This document shows positions 4,378 through 52,879 of a stretch of DNA of 64,000 nucleotides, piece by piece. The position numbers and the translations under genes are program-made. The stretch comes from an uncultured Gammaproteobacteria bacterium (lineage in GTDB: Bacteria > Patescibacteriota > Microgenomatia > Levybacterales > UBA12049). The DNA lies in NCBI GenBank assembly GCA_964490105.1, contig CAZAZU010000001.1, positions 86,706-150,705 of the forward strand, written 5' to 3'. Under the pieces are notes generated by a model that had not been told where the DNA came from, did not search any database, and worked only from the letters and a program-made list of their open reading frames with translations. Within the stretch, counting starts at the first letter, position 1. Each line of letters opens with the position of its first letter.

Positions 4378-5886
4378 GTGAGGGGAATAGATAATTTACT
4401 TAACAGTTTTACAACTTATAGAGTAGTTCTCTGCGGACTGATTTTTCTCGCATGTATATCCATATTTTTTTCAGGCATAGGAATTGTTCCATTTTCAACA
4501 ATTAACTTGGTTGTTAGTTTGCTTCTTATTCTTGCTTCCTGTTTTATATCAAATTTTATATATGCGAAAATTTTTAAAGTTCAGGTAAATATTGAGTCGT
4601 TCGCAATTACTGGGTTAATTCTATTCTTAATCCTCACTCCATATGAACTGGGAAATTCTCCATTAAATTACATTTTGTTTTCTACAATTGCGATGGGTTC
4701 AAAATATGTTTTGGCAATTCATAAAAAGCATATTTTTAATCCTGCAGCATTTTCCCTTGTAGTAATGGGTTTGTTTGGTGCATATGAGGGTGAATGGTGG
4801 ATTGGAAATACATTCCTATTCCCATTTGTTTTATTGGTAGGACTTTTAATTGTTAGAAAAGTTAGAAAGTTTAGTCTTTTCATTTCTTATTTTATCTTTG
4901 CGGTTATTTCAATTTCTATTTTTGCTTATTTGAATGGATCAGATGTATTAAAAATATTAAGTCAGGCAATTCCATCATGGCCTCTTCTTTTTTTGGGAAC
5001 CATTATGCTGACAGAACCTTTAACTATGCCGCCGAAAAGACGTCTTCAAGTATTTTATGGCGCTTTGGTGGGTTTTCTAACGGGTGTGCAGTTTAATATC
5101 GGCCCTTTCTTTATGACATCTGAGACTGCACTTATTCTAGGAAATATTTTTTCCTATTTTGTAAGTTTTAGAAAAAGATTAATTTTAGAATTTAAAGAAA
5201 AAATTGAATTGTCTCCAAATATCTACGAATTTATTTTTAAAAAACCTTCATCGCTTTCATTTCTGCCAGGACAATATTTTGAATGGACACTTGGTAACAG
5301 AAGACCAGATTCTAGAGGAGTAAGGAGATATTTTACTATTTCATCAAGTCCTACTGAAAATGACATAAGGCTTGGTGTAAGACTTGAAAAAGACAAAGGA
5401 AGTAGTTTTAAAAAATCACTTTTAAATTTAGCTCCAGGACAAAAAATTTATGCAGGAAATTTATCAGGGGATTTTACGCTTCCAAAAAATAAAAATGAAA
5501 AAATAGTTTTCATAGCGGGCGGAATTGGTATAACACCTTTTAGAAGCATGATTAGTTTTATGTTGGATAAAAATGAAAACAGAGACATAGTTTTATTTTA
5601 TTCAAATGCAAAACCCGAGGATTTTGTTTATAGAGATATATTTTACTCTGCAAGGCAGAATGGTTTAAAAACTGTTTATATTTTAACTAAAGAAACGACA
5701 GAAAATTGGAATGGATATACAGGTAGATTAACAGCTGAAATTATTAAAAAAGAAGTTTCTGATTTTACCAATAGAACATATTATCTTTCTGGGCCCATTG
5801 CAATGGTGGACAATTATAAAAAACTCTTAAGAAGGTTGGGTATAAAACAAAATAAAATAATTACAGATTATTTCCCCGGATTCTAA
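4378..5886 (+). CDS. Polytopic membrane protein fused to FNR-like oxidoreductase (FAD_binding_6 + NAD_binding_1)
   Basis: 502 aa, GTG start. About 6 predicted TM helices in the first 260 aa. Then a ferredoxin-NADP reductase-type module: RRYFTISSSP (RxY[ST] FAD motif) and IAGGIGITPFRSM (NAD(P)-binding GGxGxxP). Confidence 0.6.
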   Translation: MRGIDNLLNSFTTYRVVLCGLIFLACISIFFSGIGIVPFSTINLVVSLLLILASCFISNFIYAKIFKVQVNIESFAITGLILFLILTPYELGNSPLNYILFSTIAMGSKYVLAIHKKHIFNPAAFSLVVMGLFGAYEGEWWIGNTFLFPFVLLVGLLIVRKVRKFSLFISYFIFAVISISIFAYLNGSDVLKILSQAIPSWPLLFLGTIMLTEPLTMPPKRRLQVFYGALVGFLTGVQFNIGPFFMTSETALILGNIFSYFVSFRKRLILEFKEKIELSPNIYEFIFKKPSSLSFLPGQYFEWTLGNRRPDSRGVRRYFTISSSPTENDIRLGVRLEKDKGSSFKKSLLNLAPGQKIYAGNLSGDFTLPKNKNEKIVFIAGGIGITPFRSMISFMLDKNENRDIVLFYSNAKPEDFVYRDIFYSARQNGLKTVYILTKETTENWNGYTGRLTAEIIKKEVSDFTNRTYYLSGPIAMVDNYKKLLRRLGIKQNKIITDYFPGF

Positions 5887-5993
5887 TAGAAAAAAATAAT
5901 CGATTTTTATCGTACGATTAGTAAATGCTGCAATTTAAATATTGACAGAAATATATAATTGTTCATTTGACTTGGAAATAATTAAAGAGTATT

Positions 5994-6494
5994 TTGAGAT
6001 TAATGGCTCTAATTGAAGCCTACGCTGGGTTTTTAGCAAAACAAGCTGAATTGGCTAAATATCAGAAAATGGCAAGAATTCTTACTCTTTCTCAGAGAGA
6101 GGCTGTTATCTCTCTTCTTCCAGTAATTCCAGAAATAAATGATAAGACCAGAGTGATTTTTAATGGTGCACAGATAGCTTTAATTGGTCAGGTTGTAGAT
6201 AGATTTGTAAATGGACAAGCAGAAGGACAGGGGGTTGATCTTATAGTTGCAAACAATTCTGTACCAGGCCCGCATCTAGATGGTTTATCCGAATTTGTTG
6301 CTGGAGAATTTTTTTTAATGAGTAGTGGAGGGATTAGAACAGTTCACGAGACGCCAATTTATAGGATTCTTTCAAGCGGTGGAGATAATTCTACTAGGAT
6401 AATCTTAAACACAGAAAGAGTAGACGATAGGCGAAGAATAAAAGCATCTAGAGATCCGGGAAATATGACATTTGTTAATCTAAGTTTAGGATAG
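5994..6494 (+). CDS. hypothetical protein (island A)
   Basis: 166-aa ORF with TTG start and a possible ATG at 6003. Elevated GC relative to flanks. No recognisable motif. Confidence 0.3.
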   Translation: MRLMALIEAYAGFLAKQAELAKYQKMARILTLSQREAVISLLPVIPEINDKTRVIFNGAQIALIGQVVDRFVNGQAEGQGVDLIVANNSVPGPHLDGLSEFVAGEFFLMSSGGIRTVHETPIYRILSSGGDNSTRIILNTERVDDRRRIKASRDPGNMTFVNLSLG

Positions 6495-8256: not shown

Positions 8257-8268
8257 CTAAATTTAGCC

Positions 8269-29920: not shown

Positions 29921-30232
29921 GTGAATGTTATGGACGATCAAAATAATCCAACGGTTGGAACTCCAGACCCAAATGCAGGTGGAATGCCACCTCAAGATCC
30001 AGGAGTAGGAGGGGGAATGCCAGCACAGGATCCTAATGCAGGGGGAGGAGTAACTCCACCACCAGCAGAAAATCCAGGAGCAGGAGAAGCACCGGCAGTT
30101 GACCCAAATCAGGGGTGGACACCGCCACCTGCACCCTCAACGCCACCAGCAGCTGACCCAAGCGCAGGAGTACCTGCCGGAGAACCAGCTCAGGGTGGAG
30201 GAGACCAGGGAACAGGACAAGGAGTAGTTTAA
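29921..30232 (+). CDS. Gly/Pro-rich low-complexity repeat protein
   Basis: 103 aa. SD AAGGGGGTGA. Repeating D-P-N-A-G-G-G-(M/V)-P units. The nucleotide sequence shows approximately 30-bp degenerate tandem repeats. Confidence 0.4.
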   Translation: MNVMDDQNNPTVGTPDPNAGGMPPQDPGVGGGMPAQDPNAGGGVTPPPAENPGAGEAPAVDPNQGWTPPPAPSTPPAADPSAGVPAGEPAQGGGDQGTGQGVV

Positions 30233-30313: not shown

Positions 30314-30397
30314 TACCGGGGGAGGGATTCGAACCCTCAAGAGTTTTAAGCCCACGGGTTTTTGAGACCCGCGTGTATACCGTTCCACCACCCCGGC
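30314..30397 (-). tRNA. tRNA (type II, long variable arm), anticodon CAA -> Leu
   Basis: Reverse complement GCCGGGGTGGTGGAACGGTATACACGCGGGTCTCAAAAACCCG...GAGGGTTCGAATCCCTCCCCCGGTA. Acceptor stem 7 bp. T-loop TTCGAAT. Anticodon loop CTCAAAA. CCA not encoded. Confidence 0.65.
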
Positions 30398-37202: not shown

Positions 37203-38006
37203 ATGAAGTTTAAATCTTCTGCTTTTTTAAAAAAGAATATTTTCACAAAAAGACAACGCTTCGGTGTTGGTGTACTTATCCTCTCTATCTGTTTGTTTCT
37301 GGTTGAGCATTTCCTAACTAGATCCGGAATATATTTAGTTATTCTACTTTCTTTCTTGACCAATGGATTTCTATATTGGGCGCTTCACAAAGATCTTAAG
37401 GGTAATTTCACGCCACAGGTTTTTATCTTGCCTTTCCTTTATACACTTGCATTTGGTTTGTTCTATTTCTCACTTCCACCGCGTTTACTTGTGCAAACAT
37501 TTTTAACAGTTCTTTATGCAATAGGACTTTACTCTGCATTTCTGAGTCAAAACATTTTCACAATTTCAACCGTTAGAACTATAGCTTTATTATCAAGTGC
37601 TCGAACAGTTTCTTATGTTTTATCAATTTTCGTATACGCTTTTTTCACAAACACAGTATTTAGTTCTCAGTTAAGTTTTTTCATAATACTTCCTTTGATA
37701 TTTATCTATTCATTCCTTCTTATAGTTCATTCGTTGTGGACTTATACGCTGGAAAGGAAAGTAAAAACTGAAATTATTTGGGGAACATTCTTAAGTATCG
37801 CGTTAACTCAAATGTCATTCTTGTTATGGTTCTGGCCAAGTAAGCCACTGGTAATATCACTTTTCCTGACAGGTTTTTACTACATCATAGTAGGACTTGC
37901 TCACTTATGGTTTGAGAAAAGATTATTTAAATCAGTTCTATGGGAATATGTCTGGGTAGCTGTTTTCGTCTTTATAGTATTAGTAGTGTTTACTTCCTGG
38001 ACATAA
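37203..38006 (+). CDS. hypothetical polytopic membrane protein
   Basis: 267 aa, 7-8 TM helices. Confidence 0.4.
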   Translation: MKFKSSAFLKKNIFTKRQRFGVGVLILSICLFLVEHFLTRSGIYLVILLSFLTNGFLYWALHKDLKGNFTPQVFILPFLYTLAFGLFYFSLPPRLLVQTFLTVLYAIGLYSAFLSQNIFTISTVRTIALLSSARTVSYVLSIFVYAFFTNTVFSSQLSFFIILPLIFIYSFLLIVHSLWTYTLERKVKTEIIWGTFLSIALTQMSFLLWFWPSKPLVISLFLTGFYYIIVGLAHLWFEKRLFKSVLWEYVWVAVFVFIVLVVFTSWT

Positions 38007-38037
38007 AAAGGGAAGTGGAGGCTACTAATAGACCAAA

Positions 38038-38906
38038 ATTAAACTCCTATTCTATTATCAGGCACCAAATCGAAAAACATTTTAGGCACAAATTGAGGCT
38101 AAGCATTCTAAAAAATGTCATTAAATAAGACAGGGAAGAGGAGAGTGCTATGTGAGGCTAGTGATATAGTTTGATATGGGTAAGGGTGATATAGTGTGAT
38201 ATAGTTATTCAGCAAATTATTATAGGACTTAAATGGACAAATTTTAGCCTCATGCATGTAATTTCACGGGTTTTTACAACAATTTTCACAACCTCGCAGG
38301 TCCATACTCACGCCTACAGAGTACCGTAGATAGTTATGTTCTCAGATCGGGAAATGCGACGTGCGTTCATTATACGAAGATTATACTTTCTCTCCTTGCT
38401 CGCTATATTGGTCCTACACAAATCGAAAAAAATACGAACGCTGAGTTAATAACATTTTGAGGCTAAAAAATGTAGTTTAGCTTGATAGATCAATCTAAAT
38501 GTGATCTATGTGGATAACTCTACTTGTAGGGTACTAAGTGGTTTAGGATATTAAGCAAATTACTAACCATTTACACGTCCTAGGGAGTGATCCGTCCTTA
38601 AAACTAAACGTAGTGACTTATATCATTCTCTCTATAAGGATATAACTTTAAAAAAAAGACATATTAGGCGCTAGGAAGTAGAAACTGATAACGTCGTAGA
38701 ATAATACTTTTACGACGTCACGGAGGCTAGTATACCCGGAGAAGACCCTTTTTTCTTTCCAATTTTTCTCCTATATTTATTGAAATTTTATAATTCGTTT
38801 TACTTTCCGCTGTCAGATCTCTCTATTTATTTGAATTGCTTAAAATTATTCCGCTCCCCTGCTATAGGATACTATTTTATTTATAATTTGAGGCTAAATG
38901 AGGCTA
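38038..38906. repeat. ORF-free region with 8 dispersed copies of GAGGCTA(A) in both orientations, 3 tandem GTGATATAG, an inverted repeat and a DnaA-box-like TGTGGATAA
   Basis: GAGGCTA at 38038, 38115, 38174, 38265(rc), 38459, 38723, 38890 and 38900. GTGATATAG at 38181, 38206 and 38216. IR GATAGATCA-N9-TGATCTATG at 38484-38510. TGTGGATAA at 38509-38517. AT-rich block 38749-38815. Confidence 0.6.
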
Positions 38907-38984
38907 ATTTTCAATTACTATCACACTCATCCAGCCATAGAGTAGTGGTTATTCACGGACTTTTAAAGTAGAAAGGTTTATTGG

Positions 38985-39443
38985 CTATTTCTTTTTCGGT
39001 TCTGGAGCTCGTACAACTAAGGAGCGATTTATGTATACATCTGTGGGGATTTGCGGTTGACCGTTTTTATCAAGTCGTACCATTCCATCATTAATGCGAA
39101 TGTCAGGATCATCAGCGTTTAATTTAACTCGCACCCATGAGCCATTTTCAGCATAACCTGATACTTCAAATCTTTCTCCAATAGGAGCTTTTCCAATAGG
39201 AGCAGAAACAGTAGATGGACCGCCGCGAAGAGTTGCTCCTTCATTTTCTACTAGTTGATCCATGATTGCACTATTATAACTTCCAACCTTGACATGGGTT
39301 AAGGGTTTCGGTGCTTCTGGTAAAGGCGCTGCAAAGGAAAGGGTTGTGGAGAGCGCAACAGCTCCGACAGCTCGTCTGTGTCTAAAAGTGAACCTGGCAG
39401 CTTCAGCTATAGATTTTGGTATTGATCTTAATCTGTCTGACAT
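38985..39443 (-). CDS. secreted SH3b-domain protein (island B)
   Basis: 152 aa. Signal peptide with RR (RFTFRHRRAVGAVALSTTLSFAAP). SH3_3-like core ATLRGGPSTVSAPIGKAPIGERFEVSGYAENGSWVRV. Higher GC than flanks. Confidence 0.45.
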   Translation of the reverse strand: MSDRLRSIPKSIAEAARFTFRHRRAVGAVALSTTLSFAAPLPEAPKPLTHVKVGSYNSAIMDQLVENEGATLRGGPSTVSAPIGKAPIGERFEVSGYAENGSWVRVKLNADDPDIRINDGMVRLDKNGQPQIPTDVYINRSLVVRAPEPKKK

Positions 39444-39486
39444 AGGTGTATATTATAACTATAGGCTCTGGGTATGTCAAGTTAAA

Positions 39487-40260
39487 TTATGACTGTGGAT
39501 TTCCAACCTGGGTGGTTACAGAGTGTCCTGCGATTGATGCTATGCCAACTTGATCAGCAGGAACGACTGTTTCTCCAAGTTCATTTTTACCAGTTAGCTG
39601 ACCATTTTCGAATCGAGCACTTATTATACCGCCGCTTGAGTCAATGGGAGTGATATGAGAGTCTGTAGAACTACTGTGACTTATAAAGCCAACTGTCTTA
39701 GTGATGTCTCCTAAGGGGCTTTTGTGTTCAAGTTCTACTGCAAGCCAAGGAGCTTCTAGAATTCCAGACGAAGGATCGGTGGCCATGGCAATCGGTGTAT
39801 TCTCGATAATAAATGGGGTTTTTCCATCCCACGCAGTCCCATTAATTGATATTATATCGTTCATTTCGATATAATTGTCTCTTCCTTCTTGTCTATCATC
39901 AAAATCAGGCATATAAGGATCATGCCGGATTACTAAATCTTTTTCACCCTCTTTATGAATCTCAACAAGATACTTATTCGTATCAATTTGTTTAAGCATA
40001 CTATGATAGCTCTGAAAGGATTCTGCGGGAGGTTTACTAACCTCGTCAACTATATGTGCGACACCTGCTCCTCCGCCTGCAATTATTCCTAATGCCAGGG
40101 CTATGTTTCTAATTCTGTGACGCACGCTTGGGCCGTGGTCTTTAGATGATGTTATTCTTCTTGCCTGCTGAATCCTGGGATTGTTAGAGCTTACTTGATC
40201 GATTGATCTAAAAGCTCCTTGTGATGGTCTAATGTCTCGCCCATGTGATCCTTCTGGCAT
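39487..40260 (-). CDS. hypothetical membrane-anchored protein (island B)
   Basis: 257 aa. One TM (IALALGIIAGGGAGVAHIV) after a basic N-terminus. Confidence 0.35.
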   Translation of the reverse strand: MPEGSHGRDIRPSQGAFRSIDQVSSNNPRIQQARRITSSKDHGPSVRHRIRNIALALGIIAGGGAGVAHIVDEVSKPPAESFQSYHSMLKQIDTNKYLVEIHKEGEKDLVIRHDPYMPDFDDRQEGRDNYIEMNDIISINGTAWDGKTPFIIENTPIAMATDPSSGILEAPWLAVELEHKSPLGDITKTVGFISHSSSTDSHITPIDSSGGIISARFENGQLTGKNELGETVVPADQVGIASIAGHSVTTQVGNPQS

Positions 40261-40291
40261 GATTAATTTATATCATCCTTAGGATCTTATT

Positions 40292-40699
40292 TCAAACTTT
40301 TGGAAATTGAACCGGAACCTTTCTATCAACTTGAGTAAATAATTCCCACGCTTTGGCAAGTGAGGCTGGCCTTAAAACTCGAGAGTCTGGTTGACCTTGT
40401 CGATATTCGTACTCTGTTACATCTCTGCCATCTATGGCAATTCCTTTCATTTGCATGGGATTTTCAGTATCTGGGGTTTCAAAGAAATATACATATCTCG
40501 TCACATGCGGATGGTGCGTTAATCTTCCCTCAGTTATAACAGGTATGCTGCCAAGTCTTGTGCCAAGTACATTTACCGATCTTCCTCTTACGTCTTCATG
40601 ATCGTTCGTCATAGTAGAAGTAACTTTCTCAAGGATCCTATCGGTTAAAATTTTTGGATTACCTCTTTCGTGAATTGATATCGCTAACTCAGTAAACAT
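40292..40699 (-). CDS. hypothetical protein (island B)
   Basis: 135 aa. Own promoter TTGAAT-N17-TATAAT on the minus strand at 40708-40736, with an 8-nt leader. Confidence 0.35.
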   Translation of the reverse strand: MFTELAISIHERGNPKILTDRILEKVTSTMTNDHEDVRGRSVNVLGTRLGSIPVITEGRLTHHPHVTRYVYFFETPDTENPMQMKGIAIDGRDVTEYEYRQGQPDSRVLRPASLAKAWELFTQVDRKVPVQFPKV

Positions 40700-40707
40700 A
40701 AGTTGCC

Positions 40708-40736
40708 ATTATAAAGGATTAAGGTTGACTATTCAA
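40708..40736 (-). promoter_or_regulatory. sigma70-type promoter TTGAAT-N17-TATAAT for the 40292-40699 gene
   Basis: Overlaps a plus-strand TTGACT-N18-TATAAT (40725-40754) that points toward xer. Confidence 0.45.
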
Positions 40737-40989
40737 TTCCACGCGTCGTATAATTAATCAGCTGCGGTGATCATGATTGCTCCTTTTTACAACGCAAGCG
40801 TCGCAAAAAGGATCTGGCATAGCTAAATATAATAATTTATGAATTATAGCCTGCCCATAACTAGTAATAATCCTCGATATAGTCTGATCTACTTCGATAT
40901 AGAAATATTTCAAACGTGGCGCTCCTCCCCTATCTCTGCTAATCGACGTTTTTCTGGGAATTTAGCCTTGAATTTTATCTTATAGTATT

Positions 40990-41925
40990 ATGGAAGAAAA
41001 GCTTTTAAAGTACACTGAAGATTTTTTAGAGTATCTGGAGATCGAGAAAAACTGCAGTAAGCTCACGATCCGAGATTACAGGCATTATCTGGAGGTGTTT
41101 AGGATCTGGCATAAAGAGACAATTCCCACTAAAGAACTCGATAAATTGGACTTATCAGATATAAGAAAATACAGGGTTTATTTATCTAACAAGGTCGACG
41201 TTAAAGGTGCGGGGTTAAAGCGAGTTACTCAAAATTACTATATTATCGCCTTTCGCTCTTTCCTTAGATTCTTGATAAAAAATGACATCAAGACTCTTGA
41301 GCCATCAAAAATAGATCTCCCTAAGACGGAAAGCAGATCTTTGAAATTCCTGGAAAGAGAGCAAGTGGATAGGCTGGTAACCAGTCCTGATACTTCTAAA
41401 GAAGAAGGTGTTAGGGATAGAGCAATTATGGAACTTTTGTTCTCGACTGGCCTTCGTGTATCTGAACTTGTGAGTCTTAACCGCGATCAGATCAACTTAG
41501 AGCGAAAAGAGTTCGGAATAATAGGAAAAGGCAGGCGTTCAAGAATTGTGTTCGTTTCTGATAGAGCTGCGGAGTGGATACAAAAATACCTCAATCACAG
41601 GAAAGACGATTTTAAGCCTATGTTCATCCGGTATTCAGGGGCAGTAATTGAGGAGAATAATGGCGAGAGAATGAGGCTTACGGCTAGAAGCGTTGAGAGG
41701 ATTGTTAAGAAATATGTGAGGCAGGCCAGAATTCCTGTGGATGCTACGGTTCACACTTTGCGCCATAGTTTTGCGACAGACTTATTAACTAACGGCGCGG
41801 ATCTAAGATCGGTTCAGGAGATGCTGGGGCATAAGAATATAGCTACTACTCAGATTTATACTCACATAACAAATAAACAATTAAGAGAGGTTCATAAATC
41901 TTTCCATAGTGGAAATGATAAGTGA
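40990..41925 (+). CDS. XerC/XerD-family tyrosine site-specific recombinase
   Basis: 311 aa. N-terminal SAM-like core-binding domain (FLEYLEIEKNCSKLTIRDY). Catalytic motifs R...HxxR...Y (LRHSFATDLL...LGHKNIATTQIYTH). Confidence 0.8.
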   Translation: MEEKLLKYTEDFLEYLEIEKNCSKLTIRDYRHYLEVFRIWHKETIPTKELDKLDLSDIRKYRVYLSNKVDVKGAGLKRVTQNYYIIAFRSFLRFLIKNDIKTLEPSKIDLPKTESRSLKFLEREQVDRLVTSPDTSKEEGVRDRAIMELLFSTGLRVSELVSLNRDQINLERKEFGIIGKGRRSRIVFVSDRAAEWIQKYLNHRKDDFKPMFIRYSGAVIEENNGERMRLTARSVERIVKKYVRQARIPVDATVHTLRHSFATDLLTNGADLRSVQEMLGHKNIATTQIYTHITNKQLREVHKSFHSGNDK

Positions 41926-51790: not shown

Positions 51791-52879
51791 TTATGGTGAA
51801 ATAAAATCTACTATGGAGGTAAGCACGGAGCGTTCTTGAGCAACAACATTTCCGCTATTTGCTGACACAAACGCTGTGGTTGGAGAATTAACCGGAATAA
51901 ATCCTAATATCTTATGTTCTTTCTTTCCTTTTATTCTATAGACAATATCTTTATTTTTTAATTCAAGCTTTACAACTTCATTGCCTGACCCTAGTTGATC
52001 TAAAATCTGAGTGTCCGCTGAAGCATCAATAGTATTAACTATCCCTGTTCTTAAAAGATTTTGAATCGCCTGATCCGGGAGAACGGTTACAATTCGCTGG
52101 CCTTCGGGCGTTGAAAGAATTAGTAAATTTGTACCTATATCAACTGAAAGAGGAAAATTTGTTATCGCGCTAGTATTATTTTTAGTGAAAGCTACTGTGT
52201 CATCGTCTAATGCCTCAACCTCTAAGCCCTCGTCCTCTAATTCAGTCTCTGTTTCATCTTCAAGTTCACTTAGCTCATCTTCATCCAGCTTAACTTCTTC
52301 CCCGTCTTCATTTTCGACTTTTAATTCAAGCTGTCCGTTTTTATATTCATATTTTAATTTTAGTTCACCGCGCTCTATTTCAATTTTTGTGGTGATTCCG
52401 TTTTTGATTTTTGTTTTTATTTTTTGACCATCTGCTGTTTCAATTTCAGTCTCCTGTTCACTGTCCTCAGATTCATCATCCTCAAGATCCTCCTCTTCTA
52501 TAGGGCTGATGGCAGATTTTGATGGTTTTGGCGAAAGATATTTAGATTTAGATGACAGAGATTCTTGTTTTTTCTGTTCCTGTTCTTTATACTTTTCTTC
52601 TTCTTTCTTTATCTCTTCATTTCTTTTTTCCTCTTCTTTGTTTTCATCTTCGTCCTCATCTGATTTGTCTTCTTCCTGGTCTTCACCGCTATCTTCATCT
52701 TCTCCTAGAACGCTCTGTTCATTATTAGCAGTTAGTACTTGAGTTGTTTGAACATTCGCTGAGATAACCAATAGCAATACGGAAACAATAGAGATAATTA
52801 CAAGCGGATGCAGTGAAGTAAACTTGCTCACTGTAGATGAAGAATTTCGTTTTTTATTTCTAGCTTTAGATTTTGGCAT
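51791..52879 (-). CDS. membrane-anchored highly acidic (E/D/K-rich) protein
   Basis: 362 aa. Basic N-terminus plus TM, then a long low-complexity acidic stretch and a C-terminal globular domain. Confidence 0.4.
   Translation of the reverse strand: MPKSKARNKKRNSSSTVSKFTSLHPLVIISIVSVLLLVISANVQTTQVLTANNEQSVLGEDEDSGEDQEEDKSDEDEDENKEEEKRNEEIKKEEEKYKEQEQKKQESLSSKSKYLSPKPSKSAISPIEEEDLEDDESEDSEQETEIETADGQKIKTKIKNGITTKIEIERGELKLKYEYKNGQLELKVENEDGEEVKLDEDELSELEDETETELEDEGLEVEALDDDTVAFTKNNTSAITNFPLSVDIGTNLLILSTPEGQRIVTVLPDQAIQNLLRTGIVNTIDASADTQILDQLGSGNEVVKLELKNKDIVYRIKGKKEHKILGFIPVNSPTTAFVSANSGNVVAQERSVLTSIVDFISP

Follow-up and report, generated by a model that had tools for sequence, protein, structure and literature searches.

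A conserved intergenic element of Microgenomates bacteria with a predicted dif-type core and a motif-rich flank

The subject of this study is an intergenic element found in a 64-kb window (the whole stretch that was analysed, to which all coordinates refer) of a 464.7-kb metagenome contig, the nearest relatives of which are metagenome-assembled genomes (MAGs) of Candidatus Levyibacteriota, belonging to the Microgenomates within the candidate phyla radiation (CPR)/Patescibacteria. We found that positions 38007–38984 of the window, a stretch of 978 bp free of open reading frames (ORFs), make up the left part of an ancient and conserved chromosomal intergenic element of Microgenomates bacteria. 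Its best explanation, which we hold with somewhat better than even confidence and which is derived from sequence comparison, is that of a clade-wide element for chromosome maintenance, having a dif-type core for an Xer recombinase together with a flank that would bind DnaA and other proteins.

Conservation of the element and of its palindrome

The stretch is enclosed by a DUF5656 membrane-protein gene (37203–38006, + strand) and a convergent 152-aa ORF (38985–39443, − strand), and the longest ORF within it is 63 aa, as the initial annotation of the window had recorded. An ORF-free gap of 0.8–1.0 kb follows the DUF5656 gene in all 16 Levyibacteriota genome loci that were found by means of the DUF5656 protein, with the gene beyond the gap varying among these 16 loci. 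A profile built from nine close relatives could be aligned with distant ones over ~750 nt, and an invariant 24-mer of the element retrieved more than 120 additional metagenome contigs, most of them carrying the whole element. The gene order dnaB...YebC–DUF5656–element–xer–...–gyrA–gyrB was kept across the loci, with gyrA seen in the 20 loci having enough flanking sequence, and strand was constant in every locus with regards to DUF5656 (96 loci), YebC (76 loci) and xer (74 loci). The conserved non-coding DNA of the element amounts to ~0.8 kb in a host genome that is >90% coding. A kilobase lacking ORFs in such a dense genome could also be a decayed pseudogene, and the initial annotation had raised the question of an intact gene in relatives, but no relative was found to carry a gene at this position. 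Stop-free stretches were as in shuffled sequences (median 72 versus 63 codons), the substitutions displayed no 3-nt periodicity and the conservation was motif-like, making the probability of a pseudogene next to nil.

The best-conserved part of the element is a palindrome, ACGTCGTAGAA-TAATAC-TTTTACGACGT (38691–38718, +), of 11-6-11 architecture. It had initially been annotated as a hairpin with a 7-bp stem at 38692–38717, which is indeed present but lies within the longer palindrome, the key role of which was thereby missed. The two arms are complementary at 10 of 11 positions, with the 6-bp spacer being non-palindromic and asymmetric. The palindrome is found in a single copy within the window when searched at up to three mismatches, no second copy was found in 1 Mb of related loci, and it is non-coding, being located outside any ORF and showing no codon periodicity. 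In each of the 14 protein-anchored loci that extend to it, it was present with at most four changes and an invariant spacer, and both arms and spacer were retained where a flanking protein had fallen to 48% identity. The palindrome was also present in the more than 120 metagenome contigs, and in Ch65-like genomes its arms were retained around a different spacer, TGTTAC. In every locus with enough flanking sequence it was located upstream of xer and on the same strand, at distances of 319 to 9564 nt.

The xer gene (40990–41925, +; identified with Pfam and NCBIfam) is the lone tyrosine recombinase gene at the locus. Its product of 311 aa scored 259.5 with the XerD model of NCBIfam, 259.1 with XerC and 215.6 with XerA (cut-off 220), thus resembling XerC as much as XerD and coming close to the archaeal XerA cut-off, and reached 141.6 bits with the XerS model (cut-off 267). 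We conclude that the palindrome is probably a dif-type site and the predicted target of the neighbouring recombinase, itself assigned as an Xer from its sequence. That reading follows from how the palindrome is built, from its single copy and its conservation and from its linkage to xer, which are the criteria that found difSL and the archaeal dif sites (PMC1914069, PMC2958812). Two Xer subunits would then bind to the 11-bp arms (38691–38701 and 38708–38718), with strand exchange across the asymmetric TAATAC spacer serving to unlink dimeric chromosomes.

Copies of the arms were also found at xer itself. A promoter on the xer side, TTGACT-18-TATAAT (40725–40754, +), was recognized from sequence together with a scan for arms, and has its −10 hexamer inside an arm copy, GCGTCGTATAA (40743–40753). 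Relatives keep TTGAC-N17-(A/G)YGTCGYAYAAT upstream of xer. The xer leader furthermore contains the inverted repeat CCTTTTTACAACGC-AA-GCGTCGCAAAAAGG (40782–40811, +), having the palindrome arms in swapped order and a 14-bp stem, and this too is kept in relatives. In many lineages the arm sequence recurred both at the −10 hexamer of the xer promoter and within the leader, and Xer bound to these copies would probably repress its own gene. The complete region upstream of xer (40725–40989) is motif-rich and conserved, displaying the same word families as the element; GATATAG occurs there at 40876 and 40896, CTCCTCCCCT near 40922 and TTTAGCC at 40961.

Several observations weigh against the dif-type assignment, and with it against the preferred explanation. 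When compared with reference sequences, the palindrome matched E. coli dif at only 11–12 of 28 positions and B. subtilis dif at 16 of 28 (left arm 9/11, right arm 5/11), and it did not show the resemblance to the bacterial dif consensus, with its conserved XerD arm. It is not located at a GC-skew switch, where a classical dif sits: four-fold degenerate sites revealed no switch in GC-skew polarity at the element, neither in the window nor over ~130 loci, and the skew inflection proposed as a check in the initial annotation was not found there. A good −10 hexamer (TAGAAT or TACAAT) lies inside the palindrome arm, which keeps a transcription-factor or promoter reading in play. No footprint of Xer-mediated insertion was seen, with variable genes entering on the right side of the palindrome at a distance of ~250 bp and no second site accompanying them, and a search of viral contigs with the full core gave not a single site. 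A 17-mer, AATAATACTTTTACGAC, was matched in ten related viral contigs (among L141–L155). All ten carry it inside one phage ORF, conserved and 370 aa long (...DEERRKSIIHLAEA...), and we therefore regard the match as a coincidence and not as an attachment site.

The insert to the right, with three minus-strand ORFs (38950–40724), lies outside the conserved element, the homology with close relatives stopping near 38948. These ORFs (38985–40700) encode 152, 257 and 135 aa and belong to no family, save for a weak SH3_3 match. Across relatives the slot between the element and xer is occupied by unrelated genes of ordinary kinds, amounting to 0–9.5 kb and including transaldolase-like, trehalase-like and GH18-like genes and genes for an RND pump, and the slot is thus a hot spot for gene insertion and plasticity. 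The idea of a mobile element that integrates by way of Xer (IMEX), in which Xer would insert the variable genes at the palindrome, was considered and rejected, since the homology break is ~250 bp off, the inserts are ordinary cellular genes and no second site exists. Several contigs were seen to end in or beside the element, suggesting that it is apparently hard to assemble. What looked like a deletion of the left module in one locus (L011) was a scaffold gap of 100 N (L011 6633–6732) in place of the left two-thirds of the element.

Motifs of the flank and their predicted binding proteins

The initial annotation had pointed to a perfect DnaA box, TGTGGATAA, at 38509–38517 (+; flanks CTATGTGGATAACTC), and this box is present and is the sole perfect one in the window. 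One perfect box per 64 kb is what chance would give, and its significance hence rests on conservation. Of 115 loci, 79 had a perfect box within the element, corresponding to 0.67 per kb as compared with 0.010 per kb in the flanks, and in 82 of 82 cases it was located on the strand that reads from DUF5656 to xer. In most relatives the perfect TGTGGATAA is found at a position that here holds a decayed copy, ATGGACAAA (38233–38241, +); in the close group this ancestral box position has decayed and the new perfect box is found at 38509. Two DnaA-box-like repeats, ATTTCACGG and ATTTTCACA, lie 21 bp apart at 38261–38290 (+) and differ from the consensus TTWTNCACA (as used in PMC7561715) by two and one mismatches, respectively. 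Counting motifs in the element versus its flanks over 106 non-identical loci, we found the corresponding TTTTCACR in 101 loci at 15-fold enrichment, with 179 forward and 5 reverse copies. Boxes with at most one mismatch occurred at 4.1 per kb in the region versus 3.0 per kb elsewhere. The perfect box, ATTTCACGG and ATTTTCACA are all conserved and strand-fixed, and the conserved DnaA box is a component of the element. DnaA would be expected to bind to this strong box as well as to the two weaker DnaA-like boxes.

The other words of the element were also not due to chance, in agreement with the proposal of the initial annotation that they are sites for DNA-binding proteins. GAGGCTA occurs eight times, as had been counted, with copies at 38018, 38095, 38154, 38245 (reverse complement), 38459, 38723, 38890 and 38900; the first four had been placed 20 nt too high. 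Approximately 0.1 copy would be expected in 978 bp, and the whole window has 15 copies versus 6.7 ± 2.6 in shuffled sequences, with the seven copies outside the region being at chance level. The word GAGGCTAA was 42-fold enriched and found in 71 loci (100 forward, 50 reverse), with its copies gathering around two positions relative to the palindrome, −240 and +200. The three GTGATATAG words that had been noted, again with a range 20 nt too high, start at 38161, 38186 and 38196 and are the only ones in the window. The same positions hold the full copies of the TGATATAGT direct repeats (38161–38204, +), which have 10-bp phasing and a degenerate copy at 38171. The pair TGATATAGTNTGATAT (counted as TGATATAG) was present in 93 of the 106 loci, always 5′ of the DnaA box, with 113 forward and 2 reverse copies and 20-fold enrichment.

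The left edge of the conserved element is formed by a purine run, AGGGAAGAGGAGAG (38132–38145, +), which is invariant in the nine close relatives and 60–80% conserved over 54 sequences, with GGGAAGTGGG-type runs in distant lineages; a mini-ORF behind it, ATG-ATA-TAG, was not conserved as an ORF. The motif CCTATAAT (38219–38226, −; ATTATAGG on the + strand) was >90% conserved in the 54 sequences and 21-fold enriched in 86 loci (38 forward, 71 reverse). A reverse-orientation copy of the GAGGCTAAA word, TTTAGCCTCA (38243–38252, +), was conserved in the close group only. Further to the right follows the CGAAAAAAATACGAACGCT block (38424–38442, +), invariant in close relatives, conserved to ~90% in the 54 sequences and 72-fold enriched, with its word AAAAATACGAA found in 43 loci, 43 times forward and never in reverse. 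Next to it is a composite site, TTTTGAGGCTAAAA followed by the partial palindrome TTTAGCTTGAT-N-ATCAATCTAAA (38455–38499, +), having three CTAAA-type half-sites. This unit was recovered from 58 distinct sequences, in the recurring form GARGCTAAA-N8-TTTAGATTG-N6-CAATCTAAA, in which the GAGGCTAAA word is one of the three half-sites. Relative to the palindrome it is located between −300 and −180. The 27-bp inverted repeat GATAGATCA-N9-TGATCTATG that was initially annotated at 38484–38510 does exist, but it is private to this genome, with relatives keeping only the nested TTTAG...CTAAA. To the right of the palindrome, a GAGGCTA is followed by a conserved GGAGAAG block (38723–38744, +), with GGAGAAG peaking at +40 to +50 from the palindrome. 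The CTCCCCTGCTATAGGAT block (38854–38870, +), >90% conserved in the 54 sequences, and the tandem TTTGAGGCTAAATGAGGCTAATT (38887–38909, +), two copies at 10-bp phasing, the positions of which across loci peaked between +180 and +240, complete the set.

The order and spacing of these motifs shifted between lineages with their strand being fixed, the exception being CCTATAAT, which was found in either orientation. That the motifs are short, strand-fixed and order-shifting indicates separate protein-binding sites. The phased TGATATAGT repeats and the CTAAA-type half-sites, including GAGGCTAAA, would bind at least one or two proteins other than DnaA, and all of these bound proteins could act as accessory or regulatory factors, or alternatively as components of a replication origin. 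In one locus (L068, at about 5880–6320) we observed three tandem units of ~108 nt, TTTAGCYTC...GTTTAG-(stem)-CTAAA, a triplication from which growth of the element by local duplication can be deduced. The window itself holds a duplicated unit, at 38066–38118 and 38419–38473.

Two further proposals of the initial annotation did not hold up. One was a structured non-coding RNA, either large or as several small ones, to which the mosaic of conserved blocks and variable spacers, as well as a few short inverted repeats with apparent compensatory changes in close relatives, could be attributed. The region gave no match in Rfam 15 at the gathering threshold, nor at E ≤ 10, its folding energy was no better than that of shuffled sequences on either strand (z = −0.2 and −1.1), and sliding-window RNAalifold with 52 diverse sequences revealed no consensus structure except for two DNA palindromes. 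Considering also that the motifs reorder and that one of them flips strand, we find this proposal highly improbable. A scan of the region for promoters and terminators gave promoters at chance level and no terminators. The second proposal, an iteron-type origin belonging to a plasmid- or phage-like element that had integrated, was based upon the repeated words, the DnaA box and the nearby recombinase gene, and has in our view hardly any likelihood left. The element is syntenic between housekeeping chromosomal genes in more than 100 genomes, BLAST searches of 72,556 plasmids and 50,697 phages gave no match, and the viral contigs lacked the site. No rep gene was found near the region, nor any regular tandem array of 17–22-bp iterons, the repeats instead being words of 7–10 bp scattered over 900 bp. 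The best explanation is thus that the element works as DNA by way of bound proteins, not as RNA or protein, with the motif roles given above being those predicted from their sequences.

The same data can also be read as a transcriptional control region, a reading that the initial annotation had offered in the form of a binding array for a regulator. In this case the palindrome would be the operator of a non-Xer repressor, acting also at the xer promoter, with GAGGCTAAA, TTTAGCC and similar words being sites of a global regulator or a nucleoid protein. The use of a palindrome arm as the −10 region of the xer promoter agrees with such a reading, and so do TTTAGCC words beside −35-like hexamers of other genes (8262, 30413 and 40961), the phasing of repeats at 10 and 21 bp and the location of the element away from a skew switch. 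However, an invariant, non-palindromic 6-bp spacer with 11-bp arms, maintained across 30–50% protein identity, would be unusual for an operator, and a promoter in so densely coding a genome would need far less conserved non-coding DNA than ~0.8 kb. It would also leave the conserved DnaA box unexplained, and GAGGCTA is at chance level outside of the region. We therefore judge a pure control region to be rather unlikely, albeit deserving of consideration. As a separate observation, TTTAGCC lies directly upstream of TTGACA-like hexamers before several genes (8262, 13993, 30413 and 40961), the copy at 8262 preceding a perfect TTGACA-17-TATAAT, and this word, which may be akin to the CTAAA-type half-sites of the element, could extend the promoter or serve as the site for a regulator shared by these genes.

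Strand asymmetry and origin-like features

At four-fold degenerate sites the + strand was G-rich for genes of both orientations, on either side of the element. In the window, the strand-specific component of the skew was 0.24 left of the element and 0.17 right of it, and the values pooled over ~130 loci were 0.18 and 0.11, respectively. The coding-strand skew at four-fold sites over the whole window was about +0.07 to +0.22 for genes on the + strand and −0.21 to −0.37 for genes on the − strand. A maximum of the naive cumulative skew near 42 kb was discarded as reflecting gene orientation, and raw skew over the window was modest, at +0.06. Skew having the same sign on both sides argues, at face value, against both an origin and a terminus at this location. 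This objection loses force in view of what has been reported for related Microgenomates, where the skew of closed genomes from Ch65, Collierbacteria and Beckwithbacteria keeps a single sign along the entire chromosome; one-way replication with adjacent origin and terminus was proposed for these lineages in 2020, with neither of the two being located (PMC7143001). We found the element in a Collierbacteria contig (L092; DUF5656 protein 100% identical to a Collierbacteria protein; G 30.9%, C 16.4%) and, with the same synteny, in Ch65-like contigs (L164–L167; G 29.8%, C 14.5%), in which the skew to either side of the element agreed in sign, at 0.44 and 0.23.

These results allow for an extension of the preferred explanation, in which a DnaA-box module, phased AT-rich repeats and a dif-type site in one place would form a combined origin and terminus. 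Copying would then be one-way, with a fork departing to the right and returning from the left and the dimer-resolution site being copied last. We consider this plausible, though less likely than not. Skew of the same sign on both sides is what a one-way origin and terminus predicts, and the element occurs in the Collierbacteria and Ch65-like contigs, of lineages having one-signed skew (PMC7143001). In verified unidirectional chromids, dif is located 4–27 kb from the origin (PMC7858055). In the element, the DnaA-box origin module and the dif-type site lie within ~500 bp of each other and have dnaB, ssb, gyrA, gyrB and holB as neighbours. The E. coli R1 DnaA box faces the unwinding element on one side. 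The DnaA box studied here is likewise oriented and conserved, and the TGATATAG repeats are always found on the side that, by comparison with R1, would hold the unwinding element.

Several findings speak against origin and terminus being combined here. The element has a single strong DnaA box, and inspection by eye of the flanks of 82 boxes revealed no DnaA-trio array, that is, no run of 3′-GAT-5′ triplets. No exceptional unwinding element was found, with the least stable 80-bp stretches having −1.146 kcal/mol per bp and 74% AT, which is ordinary in a genome of 63% A+T. The AT-rich block at 38749–38815 that the initial annotation had singled out is present but, with 74% AT, unexceptional, at least 15 windows of 80 bp elsewhere being less stable. 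Neither dnaA nor dnaN was found within −38 to +25 kb of the element, and no dnaA was found in any locus using a B. subtilis DnaA query. A 362-aa ORF (51791–52879, −), located between the holB-like gene and gyrB, at a place where dnaN could be expected, was considered as a candidate DnaN and rejected, having no sequence match in Pfam, NCBIfam or PDB. Finally, the raw skew is low in the window, the whole-chromosome skew evidence is from Ch65, Collierbacteria and Beckwithbacteria whereas the host belongs to Levyibacteriota, and skew of the same sign on both sides would be no less expected at a mid-replichore position.

With regards to gene context, the left neighbours of the region are ychF-rpsF-ssb-rpsR, dnaB, efp and yebC, and to the right follow the three ORFs lacking family, xer, folD, gyrA, an H+-PPase gene, gyrB and the holB-like gene. 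Directly after dnaB is a 103-aa ORF (29921–30232, +), adjoined by a tRNA (30314–30397, −), that is Pro/Gly/Ala-rich, of low complexity and G+C-rich; it is a gene call in the source assembly and belongs to no family.

Relation to known systems and significance

Our literature search found no dif site or replication origin described for CPR/Patescibacteria, and the comparison must be made with systems of other lineages. The element is similar to XerS/difSL of streptococci and lactococci in that a single tyrosine recombinase gene adjoins its own site (here a predicted one), and in that inverted repeats around a short spacer are located within highly conserved non-coding DNA upstream of that gene (PMC1914069). 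However, difSL is 31 bp long, located immediately upstream of its gene and at a skew switch, whereas the site described here is 28 bp (11-6-11), 319–9564 nt away and not at a switch, and the Xer protein falls far below the XerS cut-off (141.6 bits versus 267). With archaeal XerA/dif it shares a single generic Xer, a nearly palindromic 11-6-11 site and a conserved flank, with the predicted dif of Crenarchaeota also being close to xerA (PMC2958812); it differs by its bacterial host, an unrelated arm sequence and a far larger flank (~0.8 kb) with a DnaA box. XerH/difH of Helicobacter and Campylobacter likewise employs a single recombinase and a fairly symmetrical site, in which small asymmetries of the arms set the order of cleavage (PMC5357621), but XerH is longer and belongs to a distinct subfamily.

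The plasmid sites cer and psi resemble the element, as interpreted here, in having an Xer core with a few hundred bp of protein-binding DNA on one side (PMC5357621). By analogy, the flanking DNA could impose selectivity of resolution without FtsK, a suggestion that is purely speculative. It differs from cer and psi in being chromosomal, and no sites for PepA, ArgR or ArcA were identified in it. The ori2-dif2 region of Pseudoalteromonas chromids has a dif near an origin and one-signed GC skew, and there the adjacency served as evidence for one-way replication (PMC7858055). Those chromids are RepA-type secondary replicons having classical XerCD and distances of 4–27 kb, in contrast to the <0.5 kb found here, where the replicon would be a primary chromosome bearing a DnaA box. 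With bacterial oriC and its basal unwinding system (PMC8287927, PMC7561715), the element has in common an oriented high-affinity DnaA box, weaker boxes, phased AT-rich repeats and an intergenic region that is long, conserved and close to replication genes, but it differs from them in lacking a clear DnaA-trio array, an outstanding unwinding element, a dnaA or dnaN neighbour and a skew switch.

Read conservatively, the element is a new single-recombinase module of Xer/dif type, having an unusually large conserved flank of protein-binding DNA. With its motifs the locus can be sought in fragmentary CPR assemblies, of which there are thousands, and the element provides a precise, sequence-defined and clade-wide candidate locus for the idea of one-way replication (PMC7143001). 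If it is indeed the junction of origin and terminus, chromosomes of Microgenomates would start and finish their replication at the same locus.

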